A stretch of 64,000 bases of DNA. It comes from Candidatus Shapirobacteria bacterium. Its GTDB lineage: Bacteria; Patescibacteriota; Microgenomatia; UBA12405. Position numbers and translations under genes: made by a program. How positions within the stretch are numbered: position 1 is the first letter of the stretch; each line of letters begins with the position of its first letter. Shown one piece after another: positions 5,370 through 25,903 of the stretch. Under the pieces are notes generated by a model. That model made no database searches and had not been told where the DNA came from. It saw only the letters and a program-made list of their open reading frames with translations. The DNA is taken from positions 71,296-135,295 of the forward strand of contig JBAZYN010000003.1 of the NCBI GenBank assembly GCA_041659325.1. The letters run 5' to 3'.

Positions 5370-5726
5370 TTATGCCTGAGTGACAATATCCGCTAGCGCC
5401 TGGCAACCATCTCTTTCTGGACTATTATAATTTGCTCTAAGAATAGGCTGTCCGTCTTTAGTGTGGGAAATAATGGTTACTTCGTTTCCGATCTGTTTAC
5501 GAATTTCGCTTGCGACGGCTTGTCCATCTCGTCTACTAGTGCCCAAATTATCAGCCACAATTACAACTGCCCGTTCAGGAATACGAGGAATTAGCGCTAA
5601 AGCTTTTTCTAGGGAATCTGCAGTTTCACGAACACTGTGACCATTTCTTTCTAAAGTAGCTCTGGTTATTTCTATTTGATCGGGATTACGTTTGATAAGA
5701 TAAGTTTCTGCGTGAGACGGTGACAT
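5370..5726 (-). CDS. hypothetical protein
   Basis: 118-aa ORF, good coding look; no motif recognised. Confidence 0.45.
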   Translation of the reverse strand: MSPSHAETYLIKRNPDQIEITRATLERNGHSVRETADSLEKALALIPRIPERAVVIVADNLGTSRRDGQAVASEIRKQIGNEVTIISHTKDGQPILRANYNSPERDGCQALADIVTQA

Positions 5727-5821
5727 GTATTGGTATGATACAAAAAGATGGTGGTAAAAGCAAGAAAGGGACCGAAGGTGGGGAGAGACAAATAATTTTG
5801 TAATCAGTAATCGGTAAGAAA

Positions 5822-10167: not shown

Positions 10168-10174
10168 TATGTGA

Positions 10175-10258
10175 TTATAACGAATTACGAATTAATAATT
10201 ACGAATTACGAATTATCAGGTAATCTGTAATTGGTAACCGGTAATCGGTAACCAGCTC
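10175..10258. repeat. GTAATN / AATTAC hexamer tandem array forming a long imperfect hairpin
   Basis: attacgaattaataattacgaattacgaatta...ggtaatctgtaattggtaaccggtaatcggtaacc. Confidence 0.75.
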
Positions 10259-10261
10259 AAT

Positions 10262-10421
10262 TAAATCCACCCCTATCCCCTCCTTTGAAGAAAGGAGGGG
10301 CACTACTCGTCATTGTGAATGAATAGAGGGAATGTGACGATCTCGTGTTTCTTGCCGTAAACCATGCCTGCCGGCAGGCAGGGATTGCCACTCCGCCAGT
10401 TGGCGGATCGCAATGACGGGG
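10262..10421. repeat. Rep135 composite element, copy 1 (carries an extra ccctgcctgccggcaggcaggg module)
   Basis: aaatccacccctatcccctcctttgaagaaaggaggggcactactc...gattgccactccgccagttggcggatcgcaatgacgg; other copies at 34454, 46075 and 49861, plus a partial at 30056. Confidence 0.85.
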
Positions 10422-10472
10422 TATGGAAGAAGTACTGGCTGAAAGGGCGAGTTTGACTTATACTTTGTAAGT

Positions 10473-10826
10473 ATGGCAGAAAATAAAGAAAGACTGGGGG
10501 TAGGTGAAATCGGCGGGAAGCAAGAGACGAGAATGGTGGACGTGGAGACAGCGGCCAGAGCACCATTGCCACGGGAAGTGGAATCGTGGATGGAAAAGGT
10601 GGAAAAAGACCAGACGGTGCAGAAAATTGTGAATGATGACAGGACAGGACAACCGGTGATGACACCGACAGCACCGACGGATCCGGTGATTCAACTACCG
10701 ATAACGAGAGGTACTTTTGCGGCAGGCTTTGGCAAGGCAATAAGCGATGCCGGAAGGTGGCTATCGGTTTTTATTTTCAGAGTGATTAAAATTAAGAAAG
10801 GAAAAGTTAAATTTAAAGACGAATGA
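10473..10826 (+). CDS. hypothetical small protein upstream of, and overlapping, the VirB4-like ATPase
   Basis: 117 aa, hydrophilic with a hydrophobic C-terminal tail; 4-nt overlap with the next start (ATGA). Confidence 0.5.
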   Translation: MAENKERLGVGEIGGKQETRMVDVETAARAPLPREVESWMEKVEKDQTVQKIVNDDRTGQPVMTPTAPTDPVIQLPITRGTFAAGFGKAISDAGRWLSVFIFRVIKIKKGKVKFKDE

Positions 10827-13156
10827 ACCCGGAAACTATTATCAGCCTGGTGACATCAATAATTGTATTTGCATTTATCGGGACGTTGGTGATCCTGCTT
10901 TTGGGATTTTTGGGGTATTTGCTGGTTTTAAGGTATAGATGGAGAGACAGAGAAGCCAAATCACTTGGGATGGTGACGCTGATGGTAGCAGTACCACAGG
11001 ATAATGAGATAAAAATTGATGCCATGGAGCAGATAATTAGCTCGTTTTCGACCATGTACAAAAGCGCCAAGTTTAAATTTTTGCAAACCTATGTAGCCCA
11101 ACCCAATTTATCGCTAGAGATTGTGGGAACGGCGCAAGACATTAGGTTTTATATTTGCACACCGAAAAAACTTCAGGATTTGGTGGAAAAACAGGTTTAT
11201 AGTGTTTATGCCGGGGCTGACGTAAGACAAGTGGATGAGCCAAATATATTTACTGAGGATGGGAAAGTGGAATATGTATGGTTGGCACTAAAAAAGCTGC
11301 CGCATTACCCTTTGAAAACATATAAGGAAATTCCGACTGACCCAATGGCGGCTGTAACTTCGGCTTTGTCAAAACTAAGTACCGGGGAAACGGTGGCGAT
11401 ACAATTGGTACTTTCGCCGACTGACGGCAGTTGGGCAAAGGCGGGGAGAAGCTTTATCAGCAGTACTAAAAAGTCGGAGGCAAACCCGGAGAAGGCCTCG
11501 TATAAAGTGGATGCAAGACAACTGGAGGCGGTGGAGAATAAGGCGGGAAGACAGGGCTTTGAAACGGTAATAAGGATAGTGTCGTGTGCCCCGAGCAGCG
11601 AGGTTGCGAAATTAAATATTTCGAATATTAAGGCATGCTTTGGCCAATTTGAATCACCGTGGAATAAACTGTCGTCTAAAAAAATGTATCTTAAGTCATT
11701 TTTTGTGGATGATTTTATCTATAAATATCCGGTGGTGTATTGGTTTAAAAACAAGACCATATTGTCGACAGATGAGATTGCATCGATTTTTCATTTTCCC
11801 AACAAATCTATTGAAACACCAAATATTTACTGGCTGAAAGCAAAAAAGGCACCGGCGCCGAATGAGGCTGTGCAGGAGGGGCTGTATATAGGCGACAACG
11901 TGTATCGAGGGATAACTAAAAAAGTGTGTATGACAGCATCGGACCGGCAAAGGCATTTTTATATCGTGGGACAAACAGGGGTGGGTAAATCGTGGCTTTT
12001 GGCAGACATGGCGCTACAAGATATTAAAGCCGGGAAGGGGGTGTGCTTTATTGATCCGCATGATACGTTTGAAAGCATATTGGAGAGGATTCCACCGGAG
12101 CGGGTGGAGGATGTGATTTATTTTGACCCGTCGATGGTGAACCGGCCGATGGGCTTTAATGTGATGGAATGTGAGAGAGAGGACCAGAAAGATTTTGTGA
12201 CTAGCTCGATTATTAACCTAATGTATAAACTGTATGATCCTTATAAAACCGGAATTGTGGGACCTAGGTTTGAACATGCAATAAGAAACATTATGTTGAC
12301 GGTGATGGCAGAGCCGGGGGCGACATTTATCGAGATTGTCCGGTGTCTGACCGATCCGACTTATGTGCAGGCAATGCTACCAAAGGTGAACGACCCGATG
12401 GTAAAAAGATATTGGACTGATCAAATCGCCCAAACTTCGGATTTTCATAAATCGGAGGTGTTGGACTATATCGTGTCAAAATTCGGCCGATTTATTACCA
12501 ACACGATGATGAGAAATATTATCGGGCAGTCGACGTCGTCGTTTAACTTTAGAAAAGCCATGGATGAGGGGAAAATATTGATTATTAATTTGGCCAAAGG
12601 GACAATTGGCGAGGAAAATTCGGCCTTTTTGGGATTGGTTTTAATCCCCAAAATTTTGATTGCGGCCATGAGCCGGCAGGATACGCCAGAGGCGAACCGG
12701 AAGGATTTTTATTTGTATGTGGATGAGTTTCAAAATTTTGCCACCCAGGATTTTGCCGTAATTTTGTCAGAAGCCAGAAAATACCACCTTAACTTGATCG
12801 TGGCCAACCAATTTATTTCACAGATGGATGATGAGGTAAAAAATGCCGTTTTCGGAAACGTAGGTACAATTTCGACTTTTAGGGTGGGAGTGGCCGATGC
12901 AGGGTTCTTGGTGCGGCAGTTTCAGCCGGAATTTAACGAACATGACCTTTTGAACCTGGGAACGGGAGAAATTTATATGAAGACAATGCTTAACGGTGTC
13001 CCCCAGTCACCATTCTCGGTGCGGGTGGCGGCGGTGGAAAAGAAAAAACCGGGGAACCCGAAACTGGCGGAGATGATAAAGCAGCTGTCGTCGATGAAAT
13101 ACGGCAGACCGAGAGAGATTGTGGAAGCGGAAATTGCCAAGAGAGCGAGATTCTAG
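10823..13156 (+). CDS. VirB4/VirD4-superfamily (T4SS/conjugation-type, AAA_10/DUF87-like) P-loop ATPase with an N-terminal TM helix
   Basis: Walker A GQTGVGKS near aa 385, Walker B FYLYVDEFQNF near aa 630, N-terminal TM; this architecture and motif spacing resemble VirB4/TrbE. Confidence 0.6.
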   Translation: MNPETIISLVTSIIVFAFIGTLVILLLGFLGYLLVLRYRWRDREAKSLGMVTLMVAVPQDNEIKIDAMEQIISSFSTMYKSAKFKFLQTYVAQPNLSLEIVGTAQDIRFYICTPKKLQDLVEKQVYSVYAGADVRQVDEPNIFTEDGKVEYVWLALKKLPHYPLKTYKEIPTDPMAAVTSALSKLSTGETVAIQLVLSPTDGSWAKAGRSFISSTKKSEANPEKASYKVDARQLEAVENKAGRQGFETVIRIVSCAPSSEVAKLNISNIKACFGQFESPWNKLSSKKMYLKSFFVDDFIYKYPVVYWFKNKTILSTDEIASIFHFPNKSIETPNIYWLKAKKAPAPNEAVQEGLYIGDNVYRGITKKVCMTASDRQRHFYIVGQTGVGKSWLLADMALQDIKAGKGVCFIDPHDTFESILERIPPERVEDVIYFDPSMVNRPMGFNVMECEREDQKDFVTSSIINLMYKLYDPYKTGIVGPRFEHAIRNIMLTVMAEPGATFIEIVRCLTDPTYVQAMLPKVNDPMVKRYWTDQIAQTSDFHKSEVLDYIVSKFGRFITNTMMRNIIGQSTSSFNFRKAMDEGKILIINLAKGTIGEENSAFLGLVLIPKILIAAMSRQDTPEANRKDFYLYVDEFQNFATQDFAVILSEARKYHLNLIVANQFISQMDDEVKNAVFGNVGTISTFRVGVADAGFLVRQFQPEFNEHDLLNLGTGEIYMKTMLNGVPQSPFSVRVAAVEKKKPGNPKLAEMIKQLSSMKYGRPREIVEAEIAKRARF

Positions 13157-13291
13157 GAAAAAACCCTTCCGTCCCGACTAAAGTCGGGACACCTTCCCTT
13201 GACAGAGCAGGCTAATACAAATTTATAATTCCTTAAGGCGGATGCCTTGCAATTTTTCTTTGGCTTCGATAAGCGGAAAATTTTTTCCTGA
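13157..13291. repeat. 135-bp insert flanked by an 18-bp direct repeat of the VirB4-like gene terminus (caagagagcgagattcta at 13138-13155 and 13292-13309)
   Basis: Contains hairpin gtcccgactaaagtcgggac and a ~60-bp segment (13215-13282) about 80% identical to the 3' end of the recombinase gene at 14182-14245. Confidence 0.75.
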
Positions 13292-13347
13292 CAAGAGAGC
13301 GAGATTCTAAGGGGGAATTTAAGAATTTTATTCGCCTACCCTATTTA

Positions 13348-13734
13348 CTAGGATTTTGGCCTTGAGTCGGAGAGACTTTGGGAATCAGGGTTTGTAATAT
13401 CTCGTGAAAAGACCTTAACTCTTCCCGAAATTAAACGGGCAATGCACTTGGATGGTTGTCCTTTTGTGTTTAAAAGGTAGAGATCGACTCTTTCTGGAGC
13501 TAACCGTGTGGCAGCGAAAGTGCCCGGGTGGTTCACTGCATACTGCTCGGCCATATTTGTCAGACCACTATTTGCAACCGAGCAAATTGTGCCGGGATCG
13601 GCGCCCCGATTGGCGATACCGCACATACCAATGTTAAACCCGCCTGGAATCCGATAACATGGATTCCCCGGATAAAAACAATAGGTATACAGTAATTGCA
13701 TTGGTGGAGTAACTTTTCTTTCTGGATCAGCCAT
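13348..13734 (-). CDS. Cys-rich small protein, paralog 1
   Basis: GMCGIANRGADPGTICSVANSGLTNMAEQY aligns to GLCGVSTPQDKGRTFCGRAENGLTTMANSY of the neighbouring ORF. Confidence 0.6.
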   Translation of the reverse strand: MADPERKVTPPMQLLYTYCFYPGNPCYRIPGGFNIGMCGIANRGADPGTICSVANSGLTNMAEQYAVNHPGTFAATRLAPERVDLYLLNTKGQPSKCIARLISGRVKVFSRDITNPDSQSLSDSRPKS

Positions 13735-13785
13735 ATTTTTATTTTATTTTTAAATTTATTATTCTTTTAATTTAATGTGGATGGA

Positions 13786-14163
13786 TTACCGGGTGATTTC
13801 TGGTATCGGAATCTGTTCTTTATTGTTGATGACTCTGCCTGAACGCAGTGTGGCTAACGTAGTAACTCGGTCATGACCAGCGACGGTACAAAGATCGACT
13901 TCTGTATCGTTTACGACAAATGCCGCTACGGGGAGAAGACCTAAATCTTGTCTGTGTGCGGCAAGGTAACTATTGGCCATTGTCGTTAGGCCATTTTCTG
14001 CACGGCCACAGAATGTCCTGCCCTTATCTTGGGGTGTGGAAACACCACATAGACCAATATCTTTATCTCTAAGACAGGCTGTCAATTTAAAACAAGCAGG
14101 AGTTGCTAAAATAACCGTTTTAGTTTGGTCGCCCGTTTTTGCTTCTGGTGAACCATTGGGCAT
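13786..14163 (-). CDS. Cys-rich small protein, paralog 2 (start codon 18 nt after the recombinase stop)
   Basis: Paralogous to 13348-13734; co-transcribed with the recombinase. Confidence 0.6.
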   Translation of the reverse strand: MPNGSPEAKTGDQTKTVILATPACFKLTACLRDKDIGLCGVSTPQDKGRTFCGRAENGLTTMANSYLAAHRQDLGLLPVAAFVVNDTEVDLCTVAGHDRVTTLATLRSGRVINNKEQIPIPEITR

Positions 14164-14181
14164 ATATTTTATTAATAAAAT

Positions 14182-15051
14182 TTATAATTCTTTTAATTTG
14201 ATGCCTTTGGATTCTTCTTTGGCTTCGATAAGCTCCATGTATTTTTCGGTGGTGGAAATGCGCTTGTGACCGACAATTTGGGAAACTACGTCGATGGGAA
14301 CGCCGGATTTTAATTGAAAAGCAATAAAAGTGTTTCGCAAGTCATTGACTTTGATACCCTTGATGTCGGCCTTGTTGAAATAGCGATTTAATAAACTTCT
14401 GATGTTACGGGCTAGAAGGTGACGGCCGGTTTTGGTAACAAAAACGCTTTTGGATTTGCTGTTGTAACGACCTTCATCGAGATATCTTTTTAGAGCTGAT
14501 TTGGCGGAATTGTTTAGAGGAACAGTGCGGACACTGTGACTTTCGTATGAGTCGATGATAATTTCATTGTCTTTGATGTTTTCCAACTTTAGATTTTCGA
14601 TTTCTTTGATCCTTAGACCGGCTTGAAGCATCAGCTCGACAATGGCGGTGGACCGGGCATCATTTCGGCAGGCGTCGCGCAGAGACCGGTATTCAATTGG
14701 TTTTAAAATTTTGGGGACATCATTTTCGTACTTGGGATGTTTTATTTCGGTGGAAGGATCGACAGAGATGAGGCCTTCATTTTTTAAAAAGGAAAAGAAA
14801 TTTTTGATGGAGTTTAGTTTTCGACTGACTGACTTGGCGGTATAGCCGTTTTTCATTAAATCTTTTTTGAAGTTGTCAATATCGGTGCCACGAACGGCAT
14901 CAACTCCGGTGATTTTTGACTGGGCCTTTAAAAAGTGGATCAGCTGATTAATATCACCTTTGTAGGCTACAATGGTGTTTGTGGACTTACCTTTTGTTAA
15001 AAGAGATTTGGTAAAAAGATCCAAGGTGGATTCAAGGGATAGATCGGGCAT
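14182..15051 (-). CDS. tyrosine site-specific recombinase, XerC/XerD-like
   Basis: C-terminal catalytic signature HSVRTVPL...LRNTFIAFQLKSGVPIDVVSQIVGHKRISTTEKYMEL (R..HxxR..Y); 289 aa. Confidence 0.85.
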   Translation of the reverse strand: MPDLSLESTLDLFTKSLLTKGKSTNTIVAYKGDINQLIHFLKAQSKITGVDAVRGTDIDNFKKDLMKNGYTAKSVSRKLNSIKNFFSFLKNEGLISVDPSTEIKHPKYENDVPKILKPIEYRSLRDACRNDARSTAIVELMLQAGLRIKEIENLKLENIKDNEIIIDSYESHSVRTVPLNNSAKSALKRYLDEGRYNSKSKSVFVTKTGRHLLARNIRSLLNRYFNKADIKGIKVNDLRNTFIAFQLKSGVPIDVVSQIVGHKRISTTEKYMELIEAKEESKGIKLKEL

Positions 15052-15123
15052 GTTGTTTATAATAGTTTACAAATAATGACTTATAGTACCATTATTAGGG
15101 ATAATATACAATATATGTAACCG

Positions 15124-15429
15124 ATGAAATTAATAAGTAATATTTTATTTGGCCTGGGACTGGGGATAATGATAATCTTGAGTCTGGGCAACGTGTGGAG
15201 ACAATATTCCCTTTTGAGGGAGGCAGGGAAAGAAAATAAGGCGCTGGAGGATAAGGTAAGTAGTTTGCAGGATGAAAATAGAAAACTTTTGAGAACTATT
15301 GATTATGCTACCAGTAGCGCTTTTATGGAGAGACAAGCAAGGATACTACTGGGAGTGGGAACCAGTAGGGATTTTTGGATAAAAGGCCTTAAGGAGAAGA
15401 AATACACTGATGAGTTTTTGACTAGATAA
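15124..15429 (+). CDS. septum formation initiator (FtsB/DivIC family)
   Basis: N-terminal TM, coiled coil LEDKVSSLQDENRKLLRTI, MERQARILLG motif. Confidence 0.6.
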   Translation: MKLISNILFGLGLGIMIILSLGNVWRQYSLLREAGKENKALEDKVSSLQDENRKLLRTIDYATSSAFMERQARILLGVGTSRDFWIKGLKEKKYTDEFLTR

Positions 15430-15472
15430 TGCCGATTTTATGTGCTAGAATCCAACAGTCGAATCAGCAACA

Positions 15473-15542
15473 TGCGGGGTAGTGTACGGCTGCACGTGAG
15501 GCTCATAATCTCACAGGCCGGGTTCAACTCCCGGCCCCGCAA
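15473..15542 (+). tRNA. tRNA-Met (CAU), initiator-like
   Basis: tgcgggg...ggctcataatctcac...ggttcaactcccggccccgca; closely resembles E. coli tRNAfMet (CGCGGGG...GGGCTCATAACCC...GGTTCAAATCCGGCCCCCGCAACCA); CCA not encoded. Confidence 0.75.
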
Positions 15543-15610
15543 CATTTCACTTGGTAATCGGTAACCAGTAATTGGTAATTGGTAATAAGAAAATGTATCG
15601 GTTTTACTTG

Positions 15611-15639
15611 TTGACAGAAGCGAAAGGCGAAGTTAGAAT
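15611..15639 (+). promoter_or_regulatory. Sigma-70-type promoter (TTGACA, 17 nt, TAGAAT)
   Basis: ttgaca at 15611-15616, 17-nt spacer, tagaat at 15634-15639. Confidence 0.5.
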
Positions 15640-15645
15640 GACTAG

Positions 15646-15716
15646 CGATCTTGGAAACGAGATTTTGCACCCAAATTTTGAAATAGAAAGGTCCTCATTA
15701 ACCTGAGGACTTTTTT
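15646..15716 (+). ncRNA. Candidate small RNA (~70 nt) bounded by a consensus promoter and an intrinsic terminator
   Basis: Predicted TSS ~7 nt after the -10; ends with hairpin gtcctca-ttaacc-tgaggac followed by TTTTTT; no ORF. Confidence 0.35.
15689..15716 (+). terminator. Rho-independent terminator
   Basis: 7-bp GC-containing stem, 6-nt loop, T6 tract. Confidence 0.6.
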
Positions 15717-15719
15717 ATT

Positions 15720-16040
15720 GGAAAATCAAAACCCACTTTTAAATAAAACCCTAACCCTACCCTTTCCCCCACCAAAGGCGGGCAGGCTTGACAGGGCAAG
15801 GGGGAATAAAAATCCAAATCCCTCTTTAATTCTCCCTTTGACCCACCTGCCGGACGAGCTGGTCTTCCTTTGGCCCTCCTACGCCACCGACTTCGCCAAA
15901 GCTACGGCGGGCAAGCAAGGGAGAATTATAAAAATAAAAGAAACTCGATATATTTGGTATAATCACCCTAGTTTTTGGCTCGCCTACGGTAAACCTACGG
16001 CGGGCGAGGCCCTCCCCGTAAGGCTACGGAAGGGCTGGAA
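15720..16040. repeat. Mosaic repeat block upstream of the tRNAs
   Basis: Modules cccttgacagggcaaggg, aaatccctctttaattctccctttgac, cctacgccaccgacttcgccaaagctacggcgggcaag (compare 1-110); includes a TGgTATAAT extended -10 at 15955-15963. Confidence 0.75.
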
Positions 16041-16043
16041 TAT

Positions 16044-16117
16044 GGCAGGGTAGCTCAGCTGGTTAGAGCGTAGCATTCATAACGCTAAGGTCGCGGGTCC
16101 GAGCCCCGCCCCTGCTA
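16044..16117 (+). tRNA. tRNA(CAU), elongator Met or Ile2 (lysidine)
   Basis: ggcagggtagctcagctggttagagc-gtagcattcataacgcta-aggtc-gcgggtccgagccccgc-ccctgct-a; Ile-like backbone. Confidence 0.8.
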
Positions 16118-16202
16118 CAAACAAAACCCACCCGCCCTTCGACAAGCTCAGGGCACCCTCCCTTGAAAAAGGAGGGAAAAGAGGAAAGTTAAAAATTAAT
16201 TA

Positions 16203-16276
16203 GGGCATGTAGCTCAGTTGGTTAGAGCATCGATCTTATAAGTCGAGGGTCCATGGTCCGAGTCCATGCATGCCCA
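16203..16276 (+). tRNA. tRNA-Ile (UAU)
   Basis: gggcatgtagctcagttggttagagc-a-tcgat-cttataa-gtcga-gggtc-catgg-tccgagt-ccatg-catgccc-a; 7-nt anticodon loop cTTATAAa gives anticodon TAT. Confidence 0.65.
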
Positions 16277-16322
16277 CAGTGGGTGGAAAACCTAAATTAA
16301 TTTTTATTTATTTTTCCAAAAT

Positions 16323-16835
16323 ATGGGCGAAAGAGAGATTAAAAAAGAAGGGGTGTTGACAGTAAGTGACGTGATGGTGATTACGAAGACAATGCGAGAT
16401 TTGTGCCCTTTAGCCGAAATGGTGTTCAGATCAGGATTGGACGGAGTTGTTTTAGGGAAAGCTCAATACAACACCACTTCACGGAGCGATTTCCAGGTAG
16501 TAGCCACGGCCGGGAACACTGGGGATATGTGGTATCCGGATCTGGCTGAAGTGAGCGAGAGAAGGCCCTTTGCAGTAGCAAACAGGGCCGACGGGAAGGT
16601 GGCGATTGGAATATTGACCAGATATACCGACCAATTTGGTCGAGTTGTACCATTACATGTGATTTTGAGAGAAATCGCAATTTCGGGTCCGAAAGAGGCC
16701 TATGGATTGATGACGAGATTATTTCCGAATTTAAGCTTTGAAGAAACAGGAGAAGAGTTAACCTATTCGGATATGCAAGGTTATGCGGAAAAAAATATTG
16801 TGCCGTGTTTTCCATTGCCATTTCCTAAAAGATAA
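16323..16835 (+). CDS. hypothetical protein
   Basis: 170-aa ORF; no motif recognised. Confidence 0.45.
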   Translation: MGEREIKKEGVLTVSDVMVITKTMRDLCPLAEMVFRSGLDGVVLGKAQYNTTSRSDFQVVATAGNTGDMWYPDLAEVSERRPFAVANRADGKVAIGILTRYTDQFGRVVPLHVILREIAISGPKEAYGLMTRLFPNLSFEETGEELTYSDMQGYAEKNIVPCFPLPFPKR

Positions 16836-16883
16836 TTTGAGGATTGACCGTTAGTGAGGGGTTAAAAAGAAGTATACTGGTGT

Positions 16884-17507
16884 ATGCAATATGACAAAAA
16901 AATAGGGTTGGTGATTTTGATATTGGTCTTGGTAGCGGCGGGCTTGATTATTACGAAAATTGATCCCAGAACGGGAGAGAAGACACAACCACCATTGACG
17001 GAAGTGACTCCCCTGCCGGAAGTACCGCCAAAAGGAGATAATTTGGTATTTGAAAACAGTGACTTGGGAATTAAACTTGGCTACCCCGAGAATTTCTCGC
17101 CGGTGGAATGCATACTTGAAGATGATGTGATATGTTTGGACGAAACGGCAAAAAGTAGCCGATTGTCAACTAAACCGGATATAAGGCTGTATAGAATTAG
17201 ACTGGAGAATACGGGAGATTATAAACAAGTAATGATGGGTGATGTAATATTTGACGCAAGTGGGCTAAGCCCGGAAAGTTTTGAGGAATTTGTACCGATA
17301 GTGGCGGGGGGGAATTCGTTTTATAAGATTAAAACGGGGTTGTTTGAGGGGATTTTGACGTATAAGTATTTTCTAGTGAGAAACAGCGATATTTTGGTGT
17401 TTGAGGTGACTTCCAGCCCGGCGGGATGGACAGAGGAGGGATATGATCCGGAAAAAGATGAGCTGAATAGACAGTTTTTGGAAATGACGGGAAGTATGGA
17501 GCTCTAG
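16884..17507 (+). CDS. hypothetical membrane-anchored protein
   Basis: N-terminal TM (IGLVILILVLVAAGLIIT), then a Pro-rich and soluble domain. Confidence 0.5.
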   Translation: MQYDKKIGLVILILVLVAAGLIITKIDPRTGEKTQPPLTEVTPLPEVPPKGDNLVFENSDLGIKLGYPENFSPVECILEDDVICLDETAKSSRLSTKPDIRLYRIRLENTGDYKQVMMGDVIFDASGLSPESFEEFVPIVAGGNSFYKIKTGLFEGILTYKYFLVRNSDILVFEVTSSPAGWTEEGYDPEKDELNRQFLEMTGSMEL

Positions 17508-17509
17508 AA

Positions 17510-18720
17510 CCAGGCAGATTGGGAGTTAGAATGCTTTTTGTTTTCGTCCTGTGCTTTTTGGGCCTGGACTCATCAGATCCGGAGAAACCGGATAAACACA
17601 CATCCGACCCACCTGGTGGCTATAAAAAACGCCACCAGGCAGGTCGGGGAACTCGATAGTGCTTGGCCCTCAGGGTCCGAAATTCACCCTAGAGGGCCTC
17701 GGACGCGTGGGCGTCGGTGCTACGGGGTGTAGCAGTGCGTCTGGGCCCAGAGGGTGTTCGACCTATCGACCAACTGGACATCCCAAGGGGGCTGTCGATT
17801 GTGACCGGGGGCGACGGTAAACTCGAACTCATTGTTCGACAACCATCGGTAGGAACACGGTTCCACACCCTCCCACAAAAGCAAGGCCCAATCCTCACCC
17901 GAGCTCCGCGGTAGCGGGGGCAAGTTGACCCGAATGCGGACGCTCCAGGGCACGTGGTGCCGGAAAGAGAAGACCACGCCGGGCCAACCCTCATGGTTGG
18001 GCCTGAATTCACGGGTCTCAACCTCCGTACCGCCGACGAACAAGGTCGCACTCGCGCTGCCCGGGCAGCCCTGGCATAGGACGCCAAGGAAGGAACGGCT
18101 GTTCCTTGGGGGCGGGGGGGGCGGTGGGGTGACCGGGGGGGTCAACGTGACCGGCGGGTTGGTCGGAGTGGCCGTGATCAGCGTCATCGGCGGGGTCGGG
18201 GTGGCCGAAGGGGTGGCCGAGGTCGTGGGCGTGTTGGTCGGGGTGGCCGAAGGGGTGGCCGTGGTCGTGGGGGTCGGCGACGGGGTGGCCGTGCGGGTCG
18301 GGGTACGGGTCGGCATGCAGTGGCGGATGTTCTCCTCCTGGATATTGATGGTGGAGGAATTCGCCACAATGCCATTCGGCCCTTCGAAGCGGATGCTGTA
18401 GACGCCCGGCTGCGCGATCCTCGTGAAGTGGGGGTCCTTCCCGGGTTTGGTGCAGCCTTCGCTGAGCGTGATCGACCGAGAGGAAACGACCTGGCCATCC
18501 CTAATGAGGGACAGAGTACCAGTGACCTTTTCGGTCGAGCATACACGGGCCCACATCGTCAGATCCTCGTAGCAGTCCCACCCTTCGGCGGGAATGGTGA
18601 CGACCGGCGTCTCGGCGGACACGACCGAAGAGTCCCGGAGGGATACTCCCACCAGGACGGCGAGGGCGATGATGCCCAAGAGCAACGCGGCGGACACGAT
18701 CTTTTTCCCGTTCATGAGAT
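17510..18720. other. High-GC (~60-65%) island in a ~42% GC background
   Basis: Abrupt composition shift immediately after the stop at 17507 and before 18720; the antisense strand is full of spurious long ORFs, as is typical for high-GC DNA. Confidence 0.8.
17720..18715 (-). CDS. secreted/membrane-anchored protein with a Pro-Thr-rich linker (high-GC, foreign-looking gene)
   Basis: Signal/TM MNGKKIVSAALLLGIIALAVLVGV; PT linker PTRTPTRTATPSPTPTTTATPSATPTNTPTTSATPSATPTPP...PPPPPPP; C-terminal Cys-containing domain. Confidence 0.7.
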   Translation of the reverse strand: MNGKKIVSAALLLGIIALAVLVGVSLRDSSVVSAETPVVTIPAEGWDCYEDLTMWARVCSTEKVTGTLSLIRDGQVVSSRSITLSEGCTKPGKDPHFTRIAQPGVYSIRFEGPNGIVANSSTINIQEENIRHCMPTRTPTRTATPSPTPTTTATPSATPTNTPTTSATPSATPTPPMTLITATPTNPPVTLTPPVTPPPPPPPRNSRSFLGVLCQGCPGSASATLFVGGTEVETREFRPNHEGWPGVVFSFRHHVPWSVRIRVNLPPLPRSSGEDWALLLWEGVEPCSYRWLSNNEFEFTVAPGHNRQPPWDVQLVDRSNTLWAQTHCYTP

Positions 18721-18888
18721 CTCCTTTTCGGATACTTTTGAAAAGAACGCACTATCGATATGTCAACGAACATGTCTTCCGACAACTTTTCAACCAAGCT
18801 AAATGGCTGATTTGTCGTCGAAAAACAGAAAACAGTAAGGACGGGGGTAATATATCAAAATATGATGGGTTTGTCAATAATATAGGAT

Positions 18889-18990
18889 ATGTTTTCTATC
18901 TTGAACCAGGGCCTATTTGACCGAGGCGAGGTTAAAAATTTTGTCATGACAGTTGGCGGATTTGACAAAAATGCTAAAATGGGTTTGGAT
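18889..18990 (-). pseudogene. Degenerate duplicate of the 3' end of the thermonuclease gene
   Basis: Minus-strand translation ...KSANCHDKIFNLASVK* versus the nuc C-terminus ...KSVNCHEKLFDQF*; ttgtcatgacagttggcggatttg versus ttttcatgacagttgacggatttg. Confidence 0.5.
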
Positions 18991-19007
18991 TATCAATTAA
19001 TAAAAAA

Positions 19008-19670
19008 ATGGGTGAGCCATTGGCAGATCGTTTTGGAAGGTTATTTGGAAGAGGTGCAAAGCCACAAGGGACGGTGGCGGTTGGACTAAGTTCTGCTCGG
19101 GAGCCCTTGCTACAGACAGTTGCCGCCGAAGGGGCACCGCCGAAGAATGGAATAGAGGTGGCTCTGGCATCCGCAGCTTTTCAAAGATTGAGAGAGCGAT
19201 TTGGAACAAGGCCAGAAGTGGCAGAGACGGGGTTTGGGAAAGACGATTTAACAGTGGGGGATTTGGTGGATATATTGGATTTATATTTGACGGCGAGAGA
19301 TGATAAGGGTATGGGTTTTGCACCTGTGGCCGAGATGGTCGTCGATACAATTTCTGAAGCAACGTGGAAGGAAGAGTGGAATCAAGAACTTACTAAGCTG
19401 CATAAAGCGAGTAAAACAGGCGGGCTAGACAGGCAAAGCCCACTTTATGCGCTATCGGTTGGTTTGGATAGAATCACCAATCCTTCGAGGGTTAGTGGGG
19501 GTGAATTGAGCCACCACCCGGGAGGGATAACGATTGACGGAAAGTCTCCATTATCTACCAATAGATATCAAGTGATGTTGACAAACAGAGGTCAACAGGA
19601 TAATGGTCTTCCAATAAAGGATGTTTTTGTGAAAGCCGGACTACCGGTGGACAGCAACATTAGAATGTAA
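19008..19670 (+). CDS. hypothetical protein (lies between the nuc 3' fragment and the intact nuc gene)
   Basis: 220-aa ORF; no motif recognised. Confidence 0.5.
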   Translation: MGEPLADRFGRLFGRGAKPQGTVAVGLSSAREPLLQTVAAEGAPPKNGIEVALASAAFQRLRERFGTRPEVAETGFGKDDLTVGDLVDILDLYLTARDDKGMGFAPVAEMVVDTISEATWKEEWNQELTKLHKASKTGGLDRQSPLYALSVGLDRITNPSRVSGGELSHHPGGITIDGKSPLSTNRYQVMLTNRGQQDNGLPIKDVFVKAGLPVDSNIRM

Positions 19671-19713
19671 AAGAAGAACTGGCGTTAAAAAAACCTGGAT
19701 GGCAGGATAGATT

Positions 19714-20379
19714 TTAAAACTGGTCAAAAAGTTTTTCATGACAGTTGACGGATTTGGTAAAGCCGGCCTGGAGGGCTTCGGCTTCGGAGCAAAACCAACG
19801 GTCGCCTTCGTCCAGGGCGAGCTGAACATTGGAGTAATTGCCGCAGCCATCAAAAAAATATGTCTTTTTGCCGTCTTTGACATTGCCCTTAATAGAACAC
19901 TTGGGATTGGCGGGATTAACAGATTGGAAACAGAGGGGGCCGAAAATACCGATTTTGGTGGCCTTGGCGGCGGCACCGGCTTTTTGGAGACGGGCAGATT
20001 CGATAGAAGCATTTGAGGTATAACGGGCCCAACCGGAGTTGAGCATTAATTCATTGACCAGAGTACCGTCGGGAAGGTAAACCAGGGCTAAAAAACGATT
20101 GTGAGAATCATTAATTGTGCCGACAATTTTGACCTGTTTGCCTTGTAAAAGTGAAGTTAGTTCCGCTTTGGCCTGGTGATAGCCGCATAAACCTTTTTCG
20201 GGAGCATTGATGTTCATGAGGCGGATGGACTGTTTATTTTCCTCAAGGACAATACTGTCGCCATCGATGATTTCGGAGACAGTATAGAGTTTTTGGGGCG
20301 GAATTTGGGAGCGGATAACGAAGAGACCTAAAAGCAGGTTTAAAATGACGGAAATTACAAGAAAGATCCGAGTCATCAT
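19714..20379 (-). CDS. membrane-anchored thermonuclease (SNase-like) with a Cys-containing C-terminal extension
   Basis: N-terminal TM; SNase core ...GDSIVLEENKQSIRLMNINAPE...VGTINDSHNRFLALVYLPDGTLVNELMLNSGWA. Confidence 0.75.
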   Translation of the reverse strand: MMTRIFLVISVILNLLLGLFVIRSQIPPQKLYTVSEIIDGDSIVLEENKQSIRLMNINAPEKGLCGYHQAKAELTSLLQGKQVKIVGTINDSHNRFLALVYLPDGTLVNELMLNSGWARYTSNASIESARLQKAGAAAKATKIGIFGPLCFQSVNPANPKCSIKGNVKDGKKTYFFDGCGNYSNVQLALDEGDRWFCSEAEALQAGFTKSVNCHEKLFDQF

Positions 20380-20467
20380 CTAAGAATAGCATGTTATAAT
20401 AACCGCTAGTTTATATAAGCCGAAGATAGGTAAGCGAAAGCTGAAGGGTCGGAGGCAAAAAGAAAAA

Positions 20468-21175
20468 ATGGCGAAAACAAATCCAAAAATTGAAGCCCAG
20501 ACAAGAACCGTTTTGGGGAAAAAGGTTAAAAACTTAAGAGCCCAAGGGATTACTCCGGCAACCGTATACGGAAAAGGAGTTGAGCCGGTGTCGGTTCAAA
20601 TTAATACTAAGGAATTGGATAAACTGTTTGAAGACGTGGGTGAATCGGGATTAATTGATTTTGCAATTGACGGAAAGGTAGTCCCGGTATTGTTTAAAAA
20701 CCCTCAATATCATCCGGTTTTGGGGAACTTAATTCATATCGACTGCCACCAGGTAAATTTGAAAGAGAAAATTACGGCAACAGTACCAATTGAGTTTGTG
20801 GGTGAAAGTACGGCGGTGAAACTGGGAAATGTGTTGGTGGAAGTTTTGATGGAAATCGAGGTGGAAGCATTACCGACTGATTTGCCGGAAAAGATTGAAG
20901 TCGATTTGACGGTTTTGGAAACAGTGGAATCGGTGGTAACAGTGGCCGATTTGAAAGTTGACAGGACCTTAGTCGAGGTTAAAAATGACCCGGAACAGGT
21001 AATTGTGAAGGTGGAACTACCGAGAGAAGAAGAAGTGGAGCCGGTAGCAGCCGCTGAAGAGGCAACCGAACCGGTAGTGGCACCGGCAATGGCCCAGAAA
21101 ACTGAGGAAGAAAAAGAGGCGGATGCCAAGACCAAAGCAGCTGAAAAAGCGGCCTACAAGAAAGACGAAAAATAA
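20468..21175 (+). CDS. rplY: 50S ribosomal protein L25 / general stress protein Ctc
   Basis: MAKTNPKIEAQTRTVLGKKVKNLRAQGITPATVYGKG...; acidic C-terminal tail. Confidence 0.9.
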   Translation: MAKTNPKIEAQTRTVLGKKVKNLRAQGITPATVYGKGVEPVSVQINTKELDKLFEDVGESGLIDFAIDGKVVPVLFKNPQYHPVLGNLIHIDCHQVNLKEKITATVPIEFVGESTAVKLGNVLVEVLMEIEVEALPTDLPEKIEVDLTVLETVESVVTVADLKVDRTLVEVKNDPEQVIVKVELPREEEVEPVAAAEEATEPVVAPAMAQKTEEEKEADAKTKAAEKAAYKKDEK

Positions 21176-21178
21176 AAA

Positions 21179-21628
21179 CTATCTGGGTTGGGAGTCGAAA
21201 AAGAGATTGATGAGGTCGTCTCTAACCGGGTCAGCGTTCTTGGCCAGGAGAAGCGAGTTTTGGGCATCTGAGATTTTGTTCAGGCAGTGTTGGAGTTTGG
21301 CCATTTCCATATAGTCTTCGACGGTTTTGTCGGGTTTGACGACGAGACTGTTGAGCTGTTTTTTGAATTCTTCGGGATCGTTTTTAGCTTTGTAATCGGC
21401 TAAATCGGACTGATCAAGATAAAATTCCTGTGATTGGGCCAAATCCCAGCGACGATTGTCGATATAGAGGCGCCAGAGATTGAGATGGGCAGCATAGCGG
21501 TCCCCTTTTGACAGGGAAAACAAGGCCAGTCTATTTCTGGTGTATGGATCACGGCAAAAATAAACAGTAAGATTGGTAAAAATGAGGATAAAAAGAATAA
21601 TAATCAGAGACAGTTGGGATCTTTTCAT
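21179..21628 (-). CDS. hypothetical membrane-anchored protein
   Basis: N-terminal TM; stop overlaps the valS stop region by 4 nt. Confidence 0.45.
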   Translation of the reverse strand: MKRSQLSLIIILFILIFTNLTVYFCRDPYTRNRLALFSLSKGDRYAAHLNLWRLYIDNRRWDLAQSQEFYLDQSDLADYKAKNDPEEFKKQLNSLVVKPDKTVEDYMEMAKLQHCLNKISDAQNSLLLAKNADPVRDDLINLFFDSQPR

Positions 21629-23904
21629 TTTGGCCAGGCGGCGGTGATGAGCATGGCCTCTTTCAGATTATATTTTTTGGCGAGAGTTTGGTAGATATTT
21701 TCGGTGATAAAAGGGATGAAGGGATGAAGAAGCTTGAGAGAAGTAATCATAACGTGGAGAAGGACGGGCAGGGCGTCCGGTCCCCTATTTTTGGTGGATT
21801 CGAGATAAATATCGCAAAAATCATGCCAGAAAAAGTGGTAGAGGTCTTCTGAGGCCTGGCCGAAACGAAAATTATTTAGATTTTTGGTAGTGGATTTGAT
21901 GATTTGGTCGAGTTTGGTGAGGATGGCTTGGTCGGATAAATCCCTCTCGGCTTCGCCGCTTCTCCCTTTGACAAGGGAGATATTTACCGGAGCATCGCCG
22001 AATTTGAATTCGATGAAACGGGCGGCGTTCCAGATTTTGTTGATAAAGTTACGCTGGGCGCGGATTTTGTCTTCGGAGACGACGAAATCAGAGGCGGGGG
22101 CGATGCCGATGACCAGGGACATTCTGAGGGCATCGGTGCCGTATTTTTCGGTCATGGTGAGGGGATCAACCCCATTTCCCTTGGACTTGCTCATTTTTTG
22201 ACCTTTGGAATCGACGACCCGAGAATGAAGATGGACCATTTTGAAGGGAACATCTTTGGCTAAATATAGGCCAAACATGATCATTCTGGCGACCCAGAAG
22301 AAAAGAATATCCCAAAGAGTGTCGAGAACTGAAGTGGGGTAAAAATAGAAAAAATCCGGGGATGATTTTTGCGGATCATCGGGATTGAAACCGAGAGTGT
22401 TTAGAGGCCACTGGCCGCTTAAAAACCAGGTGTCAAAAGTATCGGTTTCCTGCAATAAATGGGTGGACTTGCATTTTGAACAATGCGAAACTTGGTCGAC
22501 GACAAAATCGGTGTCAACCGGGGCGATTAGTGATTGTAGCCCGTTTTTGATTTCTTCATAGGAATATTTGTCTTTTAGATCGGCGTAAAACCCGGAAACT
22601 ATTTCTTGGTCCCGATTTAGGAAGTTAATTTTTATTTGAGGACTGCAGTCCAAACAATACCAGGCGGGAATTTGGGGACCCCAAACAATTTGGCGGCTGA
22701 TATTCCAATCGCGGATATTTTCCATCCAGGTAATAAAAGCTTTTTTGAATCTGGTGGGGAAAAACTTGACCTGTCCCTCTTTGGCGGCGGCAATGGCGGC
22801 CTTGGCTAAAGGATCTATTTTTAGGTACCACTGGGGAGTAACCATGGGCTCGATGGGGCGGTTGCAGCGGTAACAACGGCCGATACGGTGCTGATATTTG
22901 TCGTCTATTTTGACTAACATACCGCGGGATTTCATATCCGCCACCACTTTTTCCCGGGCGGAAGCGACAGTCAGCCCGGCATATGGTCCGGTGAGCTCAT
23001 TTAGACGACCATCAAGACCGATAACCTTTTTGAGAGGTAAATTGTGCCTTTTGGCGGCTTCAAAATCGTTTGGATCGTGAGCGGGGGTGATTTTGACAAC
23101 ACCGGTGCCAAATTCCATATCGACCATATCATCAGCAATTACTTTGACAGTAAAAGGGCCGTTTAGCCCGTCGACGGTGATTTCCTGACCGATGTATTGG
23201 GTATACCGCGTGTCTTTGGGATGGACGGCGACGGCAGTGTCGCCAAACTTTGTTTCGGGGCGGGTGGTGGCCAGAGTGAACGGCCCATACTTCATATAAT
23301 ATAGGCTGGTTGTTTCGTCGACGTAATTGACTTCGAGATTGCTAAAGGCGGTGCCACAGTGAGGACAATAATTGACAATTTTTTCATCACGATAGATAAG
23401 GCCGTCGCGATAGAGCTTTTTGAAGACAGACAGGACATTGTTTACAATCGAGGGCTCCATACTGTAGTGATATCGGGTCCAATCCATGGAGAAACCCAGT
23501 TTTTTCATCTGGAAGACGTTTTGTTGCCGATTTTTTTCGACGAAATCCCAAATCAGCTGATATAGGGTCTGTCTGTCAAAATCAAAACGACTTTTGCCTT
23601 CCTTGGATAATTTTTTTTCGAAAACAAATTGGGTTTCGATGCCGGCATGATCGCCGCCGGGCAGCCATAAGGTGGGATCGCCCAACATGCGGTGATAGCG
23701 GACTAAAATATCTTCGATGGTAAATACGGCATGCCCCATGTGCATGGGATCGTTGGCGTTTGGGAGGGGCAAAATGATGGTGTAGGGTGGGTGGGATTTG
23801 CGAGCCTTTTGAGGATTTTTGGGGACAATCGGGGTGAAGGCGCCTGATTTTTCCCACAGGGAATAGATGTCCTGCTCGTTACTTGGGTCATATGCCTTGT
23901 CCAT
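21625..23904 (-). CDS. valS: valine--tRNA ligase (short form)
   Basis: HMGH motif (PNANDPMHMGHA), GGDHAGIETQ, KMSKSKGN; 759 aa; contains an in-frame repeat-derived insert SLVKGRSGEAERDL. Confidence 0.9.
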   Translation of the reverse strand: MDKAYDPSNEQDIYSLWEKSGAFTPIVPKNPQKARKSHPPYTIILPLPNANDPMHMGHAVFTIEDILVRYHRMLGDPTLWLPGGDHAGIETQFVFEKKLSKEGKSRFDFDRQTLYQLIWDFVEKNRQQNVFQMKKLGFSMDWTRYHYSMEPSIVNNVLSVFKKLYRDGLIYRDEKIVNYCPHCGTAFSNLEVNYVDETTSLYYMKYGPFTLATTRPETKFGDTAVAVHPKDTRYTQYIGQEITVDGLNGPFTVKVIADDMVDMEFGTGVVKITPAHDPNDFEAAKRHNLPLKKVIGLDGRLNELTGPYAGLTVASAREKVVADMKSRGMLVKIDDKYQHRIGRCYRCNRPIEPMVTPQWYLKIDPLAKAAIAAAKEGQVKFFPTRFKKAFITWMENIRDWNISRQIVWGPQIPAWYCLDCSPQIKINFLNRDQEIVSGFYADLKDKYSYEEIKNGLQSLIAPVDTDFVVDQVSHCSKCKSTHLLQETDTFDTWFLSGQWPLNTLGFNPDDPQKSSPDFFYFYPTSVLDTLWDILFFWVARMIMFGLYLAKDVPFKMVHLHSRVVDSKGQKMSKSKGNGVDPLTMTEKYGTDALRMSLVIGIAPASDFVVSEDKIRAQRNFINKIWNAARFIEFKFGDAPVNISLVKGRSGEAERDLSDQAILTKLDQIIKSTTKNLNNFRFGQASEDLYHFFWHDFCDIYLESTKNRGPDALPVLLHVMITSLKLLHPFIPFITENIYQTLAKKYNLKEAMLITAAWPK
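21938..21981. repeat. Palindromic repeat module inserted in frame inside valS
   Basis: aaatccctctcggcttcgccgcttctccctttgacaagggagat; identical 44-mer at 28827-28870 inside tsaD; encodes SLVKGRSGEAERD on the valS strand. Confidence 0.9.
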
Positions 23905-24733: not shown

Positions 24734-25903
24734 ATGGAAATAATCAAAATTAACGACAGTTACGAAGAAATTATTAAAAGGACGGCTGAAACGATAAGGG
24801 GCGGCGGACTGGTGATATTCCCATCGGATACGGTATATATTTTGGCGATGGATCCGACAAATGTTGATGCGACAAAGAAACTTTTGGCGTTTAAAAACCG
24901 CTGGGTGGGAAAGGCAATTTCGGTGGCAGTGGCGGATACTAAAATGGCCAAAGATTATGTAGAACTATCGGAAAACGCTGAAAATATATATGCTAACTTG
25001 CTACCCGGACCATTTACGGTAGTAAGCAAGGGAAAACATAAAATGGCGAGCGGGATTGAGGCGGAAAACGGGACTTTGGGGATAAGAATCCCCGATAACA
25101 AATATATTCACGATTTGGTGACAGCCATTGGGAAACCGGTAACGGCGACATCGGCTAATCTGTCGGGGCGGACACCGCATTATTCTATCGAGAGCTTTTT
25201 GAAAACATTGTCGCAGAAAAAGAGGGACATGATTGATTTGATCGTTGATGCGGGGAAACTGCGGTTTAATAAGCCGTCGACAGTTATTGATGCCACTGAG
25301 CCGGAAATCAAAATTTTGAGGCGAGGCGACCTGATTACTGCTAATTCTAAAACTTTGATATCCAAATCGGAAAAGGAAACGGGGAAGATTGCGGAGTTTA
25401 TATTGAATAAATCCCTAAATCAAAATCTACCCCTATCCCCTCCTTTGACGAAAGGAGGGGCACTGCCATTAGTATTTGGACTGAGTGGAGATTTGGGATG
25501 CGGAAAGACAGTGTTTTCGAGGAGTGTGGGGAAAATATTGGGGGTTAAAGAAAAAATCACTAGCCCGACATTTGTGATTATGAATGAGTATGATATCAGT
25601 CTGAAAGTCCAAAAGTCTGAAAGTCTGAAAGTTGGACAGCCGGTTAGTCTGAAAGTCCAAAAGTCTGAAAGTCTGAAAGCCGGGAAGTTTTTACATTTTG
25701 ATTTGTATAGAATCGGAGGCCAGTTTGAATTGGAAGAAATAAAATTTTGGGAACAGTTCAAACCGGGAACCGTGGCTTGTATTGAGTGGCCGGAAAATAT
25801 GGGAAAGGAAAATTTTGAGAAATTGAAAAAGATGACGAATTATAAGGCAATAAACTTTGAATATGTGAACGAGAGAACAAGAAAGATAAGTTATGAGATG
25901 TAA
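24734..25903 (+). CDS. L-threonylcarbamoyladenylate synthase (TsaC/YrdC domain) fused to tRNA t6A protein TsaE
   Basis: YrdC domain ...VTATSANLSGR...; TsaE P-loop GLSGDLGCGKTVF, SPTF, HFDLYRI; two in-frame repeat insertions in the TsaE half. Confidence 0.85.
   Translation: MEIIKINDSYEEIIKRTAETIRGGGLVIFPSDTVYILAMDPTNVDATKKLLAFKNRWVGKAISVAVADTKMAKDYVELSENAENIYANLLPGPFTVVSKGKHKMASGIEAENGTLGIRIPDNKYIHDLVTAIGKPVTATSANLSGRTPHYSIESFLKTLSQKKRDMIDLIVDAGKLRFNKPSTVIDATEPEIKILRRGDLITANSKTLISKSEKETGKIAEFILNKSLNQNLPLSPPLTKGGALPLVFGLSGDLGCGKTVFSRSVGKILGVKEKITSPTFVIMNEYDISLKVQKSESLKVGQPVSLKVQKSESLKAGKFLHFDLYRIGGQFELEEIKFWEQFKPGTVACIEWPENMGKENFEKLKKMTNYKAINFEYVNERTRKISYEM
25423..25463. repeat. Palindromic module aaatctacccctatcccctcctttgacgaaaggaggggcac inserted in frame in tsaE
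   Basis: Same module opens the Rep135 copies; encodes NQNLPLSPPLTKGGAL just before the TsaE P-loop. Confidence 0.9.
25598..25679. repeat. 9-bp tandem repeat (agtctgaaag/gtccaaaag units) inserted in frame in tsaE
   Basis: Encodes LKVQKSESLKVGQPVSLKVQKSESLKA between EYDIS and GKFLHFDLYR; the same unit family is intergenic at 7003-7050 and 61960-62080. Confidence 0.85.

Follow-up and report, generated by a model that had tools for sequence, protein, structure and literature searches.

Within the 64,000-nucleotide stretch of DNA analysed here (the window), a compact block of high guanine-plus-cytosine (GC) content at positions 17601 to 18715 carries one intact gene of foreign composition, which encodes a 331-residue protein with a Pro/Thr-rich linker. 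We consider it likely that this block is real, that a Shapirobacteria-like bacterium of the Patescibacteria, or Candidate Phyla Radiation (CPR), acquired it into its chromosome as a single gene by horizontal transfer, and that it came about in the way proposed below.

The foreign composition was confirmed by windowed GC content and tetranucleotide statistics, in agreement with an earlier reading of the sequence alone (the sequence-only reading), which had reported a high-GC island here. With 63.0% GC compared to 44.1% for the window as a whole, the stretch 17510–18720 tops all 1200-bp windows (mean 0.441, standard deviation (sd) 0.036); the next unrelated GC peak, near 33.7 kb, reaches 0.508. 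In tetranucleotide space the block lies farther from the host centroid than other 1.2-kb segments do, by 9.8 sd, and closer to a Chloroflexota contig than does any segment of the host. At codon positions 1, 2 and 3 the gene exhibits GC contents of 0.54, 0.58 and 0.825, respectively. The value for the third position (GC3) compares to 0.454 ± 0.060, with a maximum of 0.568, in 60 other open reading frames (ORFs) of the window, corresponding to z = 6.2. The high GC3 persists in both globular domains of the protein, and these are still distant from the host in tetranucleotide space when the linker and the 3′ untranslated region (UTR) are excluded. The anomaly thus affects synonymous sites and does not merely follow from the Pro/Thr-rich linker. 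The gene itself has 64.7% GC and the non-coding 3′ UTR (17601–17719) 62%. By composition and by its deviation at synonymous sites, the block conforms to a horizontally acquired compositional islet.

The right edge is abrupt and coincides precisely with the ATG at 18715, which refines the earlier estimate of about 18720; the adjoining DNA (18716–18929) has 39% GC. On the left the shift had been placed directly after the stop codon at 17507, but positions 17508–17600 are host-like with 46% GC, and GC-rich DNA starts from about 17601 at a hairpin. Comparison of the island by blastn with all fetched loci and with the rest of the window gave neither a nucleotide-level relative nor a repeat at the edges. 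As an Rfam scan of the window returned three tRNAs only, a structured RNA gene can be excluded for the block. Block, gene and adjoining signals are arranged as follows:

17601 to 18715, block without strand: core high-GC block of gene plus 119-nt GC-rich 3′ UTR, about 62–65% GC, tetranucleotide z = 9.8.
17720 to 18715, minus strand: intact gene for a predicted exported protein of 331 amino acids (aa), stop codon at 17720–17722; the GC3 of 0.825 is highest in this frame.
18614 to 18715, minus strand: predicted N-terminal signal peptide or membrane anchor, residues 1–34 (MNGKK, 19 hydrophobic residues, then VSA followed directly by ET).
18317 to 18613, minus strand: N-terminal all-beta domain (N-domain), residues 35–133, with four Cys; weakly similar to the He_PIG/PKD-like immunoglobulin (Ig) fold.
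18101 to 18316, minus strand: Pro/Thr-rich (PT) linker, residues 134–205 (72 residues), up to 75% GC, with degenerate 12/18-nt repeats.
17723 to 18100, minus strand: C-terminal beta-sandwich domain (C-domain), residues 206–331, with four Cys, delimited by phmmer, family alignment A1 and AlphaFold.
17604 to 17647, minus strand: GC-rich hairpin with a 17-bp stem, 73 nt downstream of the stop codon, marking the left edge of the block.
18721 to 18726, minus strand: Shine-Dalgarno sequence AAGGAG, read from the sequence; it precedes the ATG by 5 nt and lies in DNA that is AT-rich and host-like.
18849 to 18877, minus strand: sigma-70-type promoter-like site (TTGACA, 17-nt spacer, TG-extended TATATT; 11/12 matches), 134 nt upstream of the ATG.

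The block holds only one long ORF, the minus-strand gene with Pro-Thr linker that had been recognised from the sequence; its reading frame is corroborated by the GC3 maximum and by the linker repeats, whose units are spaced 12 or 18 nt and are therefore in frame. The spurious open frames seen earlier on the antisense strand are real as well: ORFs of 98–160 aa occur in other frames and on the opposite strand. They misled the gene callers, and the annotation of the source at the Joint Genome Institute (JGI) contains only a 155-aa fragment that starts from an internal Met (P0003).

At the N-terminus AlphaFold places a helix at residues 5–27, and the N-termini of other family members are of the same kind. 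Cleavage after VSA would follow from the −3/−1 rule; with its 10-residue c-region the segment could also serve as an uncleaved anchor. About 16 He_PIG repeats of protein P0004 each align to the N-domain over 59 aa with 32% identity, and phmmer also matched giant adhesin-like proteins whose He_PIG/PKD repeats weakly resemble it. These similarities lie below the Pfam threshold for He_PIG and PKD (PF05345, PF18911), with no Pfam match at E ≤ 0.1. Downstream of the gene, the hairpin (inverted repeat I12, 88% complementary, 10-nt loop) lies in a 3′ UTR that folds much better than its shuffled versions (z = −4.65) and is probably the terminator or a 3′ stabiliser of the gene. A scan for consensus terminators did not call it because of the 10-nt loop and the weak U tract. 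The promoter-like site, located in DNA of 39% GC, is the top match in 16200–20500, where six sites were found compared to 4.3 expected in shuffles; it is a match to the consensus only.

Continuity of host and foreign DNA at the left junction was confirmed by a separate assembly. Exact-product look-ups of the flanking genes led to two contigs of the Logan assembly of run SRR18595301. The first, L087, equals window positions 16228–18214 with one mismatch in 1987 bp (99.95%). It spans the host tRNA-Ile, two host ORFs and the left junction, continues 495 nt into the gene and ends in the repetitive linker. The sole difference, G/C at 17797, is nonsynonymous (R307G) and shows that the two assemblies differ in sequence; it falls in a loop insertion (NRQPP) unique to the window protein. 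The second contig, L088, equals 18959–21966 and ends about 240 nt short of the right junction. The 745 bp between the two, right junction included, were not recovered in the Logan assembly. The contig ends lie in the PT repeats (18214) and in a relic of a nuclease gene end (18959), respectively; repeats, low coverage or strain variation may explain them. An exact-product look-up of the spurious plus-strand ORF that spans the right junction gave no match.

A homology search of the 331-aa protein, proposed in the sequence-only reading, revealed relatives for the C-domain. Exhaustive phmmer analysis of 1.84 billion representatives with a linker-removed query gave seven small clusters that match this domain (E 2e-14 to 6e-4). 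Pfam, NCBIfam and PHROGs contain no match to the 331-aa protein, and there is no Pfam or NCBIfam model for the C-domain. Judged by sequence, this roughly 110-aa domain with the motifs LCQGCW...WVGGTEQ defines a small, previously unmodelled and presumably extracellular family. Alignment A1, which includes the window protein, has nine invariant columns (C11, G13, G25, G26, G40, P63, W73, W78, Q111), and all are retained in the window protein. Its score against the A1 profile (128.8 bits, E 1e-37) is circular, since the profile includes the window sequence itself. With 33–51% identity to the others, the window protein is the most divergent family member. Its closest relative is 48–51% identical in the C-domain only; a Pro replaces the motif Trp, and two loop insertions as well as a Cys-containing C-terminal extension are present. 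The architecture of N-terminal signal or anchor, Pro/Thr linker and C-domain is common in the family (P0006, P0009, P0010, the L081 paralogs and the phage L092 protein). The N-domains vary, and that of the window protein is unlike those of other members. The following members were located:

L081, 9650 to 12758: P0006 and two tandem paralogs on a 62% GC contig of a Chloroflexota metagenome-assembled genome (MAG; GXY52 locus tags), where NCBI assigns the adjacent genes to Chloroflexota, with native GC3 of 0.71–0.79.
P0007, P0014 and P0010: members named Chloroflexi or Anaerolineae.
P0030 and L100: members on contigs of 60–63% GC.
P0009 (341 aa): member on contigs of 39% GC, where the neighbours carry the name Candidatus Shapirobacteria CG03_land_8_20_14_0_80_39_12; a GC outlier.
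L092, 2167 to 2964 (JGI 3300063141 Ga0598260_0017643): P0011, part of a 265-aa gene of about 45% GC on a phage-like contig of 44.6% GC.

The three L081 paralogs (330, 278 and 304 aa) have the C-domain in common and differ in their N-domains; they adjoin glycoside-hydrolase-like and transporter genes. P0009 is embedded in a tRNA cluster (contig L090, 5007–7404), with Leu, Pro and Gly upstream and His downstream, and ARAGORN reported on this contig an unusual tRNA-like gene (5661–5736) whose ‘anticodon’ has two bases. The phage-borne member has no N-domain; its anchor is followed by a PT/ST linker of roughly 120 aa and the C-domain. Its contig encodes a Cas4-like nuclease, a primase, RusA and a PolA split by an HNH endonuclease, and the family gene lies in this replication module between the primase and RusA/PolA genes. 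The source annotation of L092 called an antisense ‘LVGV’ ORF and a 111-aa fragment in place of the family gene. The PolA of L092 is only 25% identical to deposited phages.

Other searches added little. In the word-indexed collection the full protein gave Pro/Thr-linker artefacts only (P0001, P0002), the linker-less protein only the fragment of the source annotation itself, and the A1 profile just four matches. Back-translated scans of the genome and metagenome contig collections with the protein gave no match. No family member was found in IMG/VR by the A1 scan, and a tblastn search with the phage copy gave no match among 50,697 deposited phages.

The homologues are native in composition in Chloroflexota contigs of 60–63% GC, three tandem paralogs included. 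As the family is native in high-GC Chloroflexota and a compositional stranger in two CPR genomes, transfer from a Chloroflexota-like donor to the CPR is the favoured direction. Identities of only 33–51% indicate that the actual donor is unsampled. P0009, with 51% GC and GC3 of 0.48 compared to 0.29–0.39, is a milder outlier than the window gene; it was assembled at least 24 times in independent samples. In a neighbour-joining tree of 10 C-domains the window protein is not paired with this other CPR member, which groups with Chloroflexota at 60% bootstrap. The two CPR copies look like separate gains, since their N-domains differ, their amelioration is very unequal and the tree gives no sister relationship. 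The actinobacterial affinity suggested in the sequence-only reading found no confirmation: every organism-named relative belongs to Chloroflexota/Anaerolineae or Candidatus Shapirobacteria, and an actinobacterial origin was dropped, as the searches gave no relative from that group. Its description of the acquisition as recent holds in part. The unameliorated GC3 argues for a young insertion; against this stands the closest relative at about 50% identity with no donor identified.

From these data we infer the following course of events. A piece of about 1.1 kb, reaching from the start codon to the GC-rich 3′ hairpin, would have been transferred from an unsampled high-GC lineage, most probably Chloroflexota-like, and would not yet have drifted to host composition. 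Transcription may start from the host-type promoter and translation from the host-type Shine-Dalgarno sequence, both of which abut the foreign ATG. The product would be exported via Sec, after which it would either leave the cell or stay attached through its N-terminal hydrophobic segment. On the outside it would present an Ig-like N-domain and a Cys-containing beta-sandwich at the end of an extended Pro/Thr stalk of about 70 residues.

Structural parameters of the C-domain were obtained with AlphaFold and family alignment A2. The model, a nine-strand beta-sandwich, exhibits a predicted local distance difference test (pLDDT) score of 90 and a predicted template modelling (pTM) score of 0.83. 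The full-length single-sequence model is poor (pLDDT 60), with low confidence for the N-domain. Foldseek searches of PDB and BFVD gave only generic sandwiches of the Ig or carbohydrate-binding module (CBM) type (E ≥ 1e-3, TM about 0.4), among them weak matches of the C-domain to the minor pilin FctB, CARDB, the S-layer protein SlaB and CBM20/25. No recognised CBM or catalytic domain was found: Pfam and NCBIfam gave no match, and Foldseek placed CBM20/25/60 at E 0.04–0.1. Most likely the protein acts as an extracellular binding or adhesion module, adhesin- or lectin-like, with a cell-surface or polymer ligand. A binding module rather than an enzyme is suggested by the constant exported C-domain on a long stalk, the variable or absent N-domain, the tandem paralogs in Chloroflexota and the abundant conserved Trp and Cys residues.

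Judged from its genes, the host is a Shapirobacteria-like member of the Patescibacteria. Its LeuRS (21625–23904) is 56–66% identical to those of Patescibacteria MAGs, including Candidatus Shapirobacteria, and the loci of these relatives come from small genomes of 34–47% GC. The nearest LeuRS relatives, L001, L003 and L015, are labelled ‘uncultured Gammaproteobacteria’ in their records. Since their gene content (Xer, L25, Sua5-TsaE) and GC of 34–47% look like Patescibacteria, these labels are probably wrong. The window itself contains typical CPR features, namely L25, a Sua5-TsaE fusion, a VirB4/HerA-like ATPase and tRNA-Ile(UAU). The fusion (ORF 24734–25903, plus strand) joins Sua5/YrdC and TsaE, i.e. 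two t6A-synthesis proteins in one. The ATPase, a 777-aa HerA/DUF87/TrwB-like protein at 10823–13156 (plus strand; phrog_5156, E 3e-87), lies 4.5 kb from the foreign gene and probably represents the VirB4-type ATPase that belongs to the type IV secretion or DNA-uptake apparatus of Patescibacteria (PMC12102498). The surroundings of the block comprise the following features:

15473 to 16277, plus strand: tRNA cluster (tRNA-Met, tRNA-Met, tRNA-Ile-UAU), 1.3 kb from the GC block.
16323 to 16835 and 16884 to 17507: two family-less ORFs between the tRNA cluster and the GC block.
18930 to 18969, minus strand: relic copy of the 3′ end of an SNase-family nuclease gene, 40 nt, 85% identical to 19722–19761, just upstream of the promoter.

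Both tRNA-Met genes carry CAU, and the two 75-nt tRNA genes at 16044 and 16203 are 74% identical. The neighbouring duplication of the nuclease gene end, described in the sequence-only reading, was verified as the 40-nt relic at 18930–18969. It is situated 750 bp downstream of the intact gene end and still encodes a recognisable ...FVKSANCHDKIFN... tail, and a 220-aa family-less ORF (19008–19670) lies between the relic and intact nuclease 3′ ends. This arrangement looks like insertion into, or replacement of, the end of the nuclease gene. The promoter of the foreign gene begins about 40 nt past the relic stop.

Several points weigh against a horizontal acquisition as proposed here. The donor was not found, the top identity of 48–51% concerns the C-domain only, and in the tree of 10 C-domains no bootstrap exceeds 60% and the window protein forms the longest branch. 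The right junction (18715/18716) occurs in no independent assembly, the Logan contigs stopping at 18214 and 18959; moreover, the Logan run may share its sample with the JGI contig, in which case it represents an independent assembler and not independent DNA. In the collections neither a close host relative (the best LeuRS match reaches 58–66%) nor a second strain was found, and no empty site was seen; the nearest genomes are distant, and their gene order around LeuRS is rearranged. Neither a repeat pair that brackets 17601–18715 nor a mobility gene accompanies the block, so that flanking repeats with a cognate recombinase, as expected of a mobile element, are absent here. The only integrase of the window (14182–15051) is Xer-like and has orthologues of 48–49% identity in the relatives L001 and L003. 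For promoter and terminator the evidence is limited to consensus or fold similarity. Finally, the fold matches are generic, which makes the binding function a guess from architecture.

Among the alternatives, delivery as phage cargo (a ‘moron’) survives best, although we regard it as unlikely. Here the gene would have arrived on a phage or mobile element of which it is the only surviving piece, and it would serve a phage-related function, e.g. surface modification or exclusion. The family member between primase and RusA/PolA on a phage-like contig, whose 44.6% GC is near that of this host, is in accordance with such a route, as is the location of the block in a stretch of family-less ORFs between the tRNA cluster and the relic gene-end duplication. 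However, a PHROGs comparison of the ORFs in 9049–21628 revealed no phage structural or replication family, for which reason a prophage remnant was also rejected. The phage copy has a phage-like GC content of 45% and not 65%, and no member was found in the 50,697 deposited phages or in IMG/VR. The phage-borne member is nevertheless a plausible vehicle, and nothing in the window shows phage delivery. As this alternative concerns the vector, it is compatible with the horizontal acquisition proposed above.

Quite improbable is a native CPR gene, inherited vertically in Shapirobacteria-like bacteria and GC-rich owing to its amino-acid content (Pro, Thr, Gly, Ala) or to selection on the mRNA. A second Shapirobacteria lineage does carry a family member, promoter and ribosome-binding site are native, and the linker alone reaches 75% GC because of its CCN and ACN codons. 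Such an origin is hardly reconciled with a GC3 of 0.825, 6 sd above host genes, in both globular domains and with an untranslated 3′ region that likewise has 62% GC. The relationships point in the same direction: the window protein is 42% identical to the Shapirobacteria member compared to 44–51% to Chloroflexota members, P0009 groups with Chloroflexota sequences (with weak support), the N-domains of the two CPR members are unrelated, and the tandem paralogs in Chloroflexota are of native composition.

The sequence-only reading had offered horizontal transfer and a chimeric contig as the two possibilities. Foreign synonymous sites and 3′ UTR together with the Chloroflexota homologues speak for transfer, whereas contig L087, which spans the left junction, speaks against a chimera, i.e. 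a 1.1-kb piece of a high-GC genome wrongly stitched into a CPR contig. The composition shift is indeed extreme and abrupt, a single long contig contains the exact gene, no independent assembly supports the right junction, and repetitive Pro/Thr-linker DNA is of the type in which assembly graphs tangle. Nevertheless the left junction was recovered by a different assembler with one SNP, and a chimera would require two false joins within a 141-kb contig, leading back to the same genome, with no common repeat at the edges. Moreover, the block opens at an ATG with a correctly spaced Shine-Dalgarno sequence and promoter and closes at a hairpin, and a family member is a GC outlier in another CPR genome, where it was assembled repeatedly in independent samples. 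Since two repeat-free false joins, the equipped start codon at the edge, the hairpin end and this CPR precedent would all have to be accounted for, we consider a chimera very unlikely.

Two minor candidates were dropped: an integron cassette, for which reading of the hairpin by eye (no pattern search was made) gave no GTTRRRY/RYYYAAC attC cores and the window no integron integrase, and a 17-nt inverted repeat (17443–17459 / 18699–18715), which is no better than dozens of chance pairs.

Compared to known systems, the block resembles the horizontally transferred genes and islets described for CPR genomes (PMC12455944, mSystems 2025) in being a compositional outlier of foreign affinity near tRNA genes in a streamlined genome. 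It differs in consisting of a single ORF and a hairpin with no mobility genes, in its host promoter and ribosome-binding site and in its unsampled donor. According to the same study, cross-phylum donors of horizontal gene transfer into Patescibacteria exist but are a minority, and its Table 1 lists no Chloroflexota donor; in the literature, a link between Chloroflexota and Shapirobacteria was not found. With the Chloroflexota C-domain proteins (P0006, NLV75157/NLV75158, MCE5260072, MHB1356421) and P0009 the window protein shares architecture, invariant residues and a length of 300–341 aa, in contrast to its He_PIG/PKD-like N-domain, the Pro in place of Trp and an identity of 33–51%. The predicted signal peptide, the PT linker and the aromatic-rich terminal beta-sandwich are similar to those of PT-linker CBM proteins (actinobacterial CBM2 cellulases; CBM20/25), but the window protein has no catalytic domain, Pfam CBM match or significant structural match, and sugar binding is hypothetical. 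Ig-fold pilins and adhesins (FctB, CnaB/CARDB, He_PIG/PKD) provide the top Foldseek hits for the C-domain (8k6t, 3klq, probability 0.99–1.0), yet with sequence identities of 8–10%, TM of about 0.42, high root-mean-square deviation, no sortase motif and scores below Pfam thresholds.

That a CPR genome gains a secreted protein by horizontal transfer is an ordinary phenomenon, to which the family and its distribution are modest additions. Here the gain is clean, comprises one gene and shows no amelioration; its family is common only to Chloroflexota, another Shapirobacteria lineage and a phage, and it adds a previously unmodelled, presumably extracellular domain with a high-confidence structure prediction. 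In practical terms, genes with PT linkers are mis-called by gene finders, as the 155-aa truncation here and the antisense ORF in the phage contig demonstrate. The distribution of the family is a testable hint of ecological contact among these groups and could also point to a host relationship. To our knowledge, the hosts of most CPR lineages are unknown. As a speculation to which we give a low probability, the family may be a surface-binding module captured repeatedly from Chloroflexota by Shapirobacteria-like episymbionts, possibly via phages, for attachment to Chloroflexota hosts. If this were true, the family would point, at the molecular level, to the hosts of these CPR bacteria, with symbionts borrowing the envelope-binding domain of the host itself.

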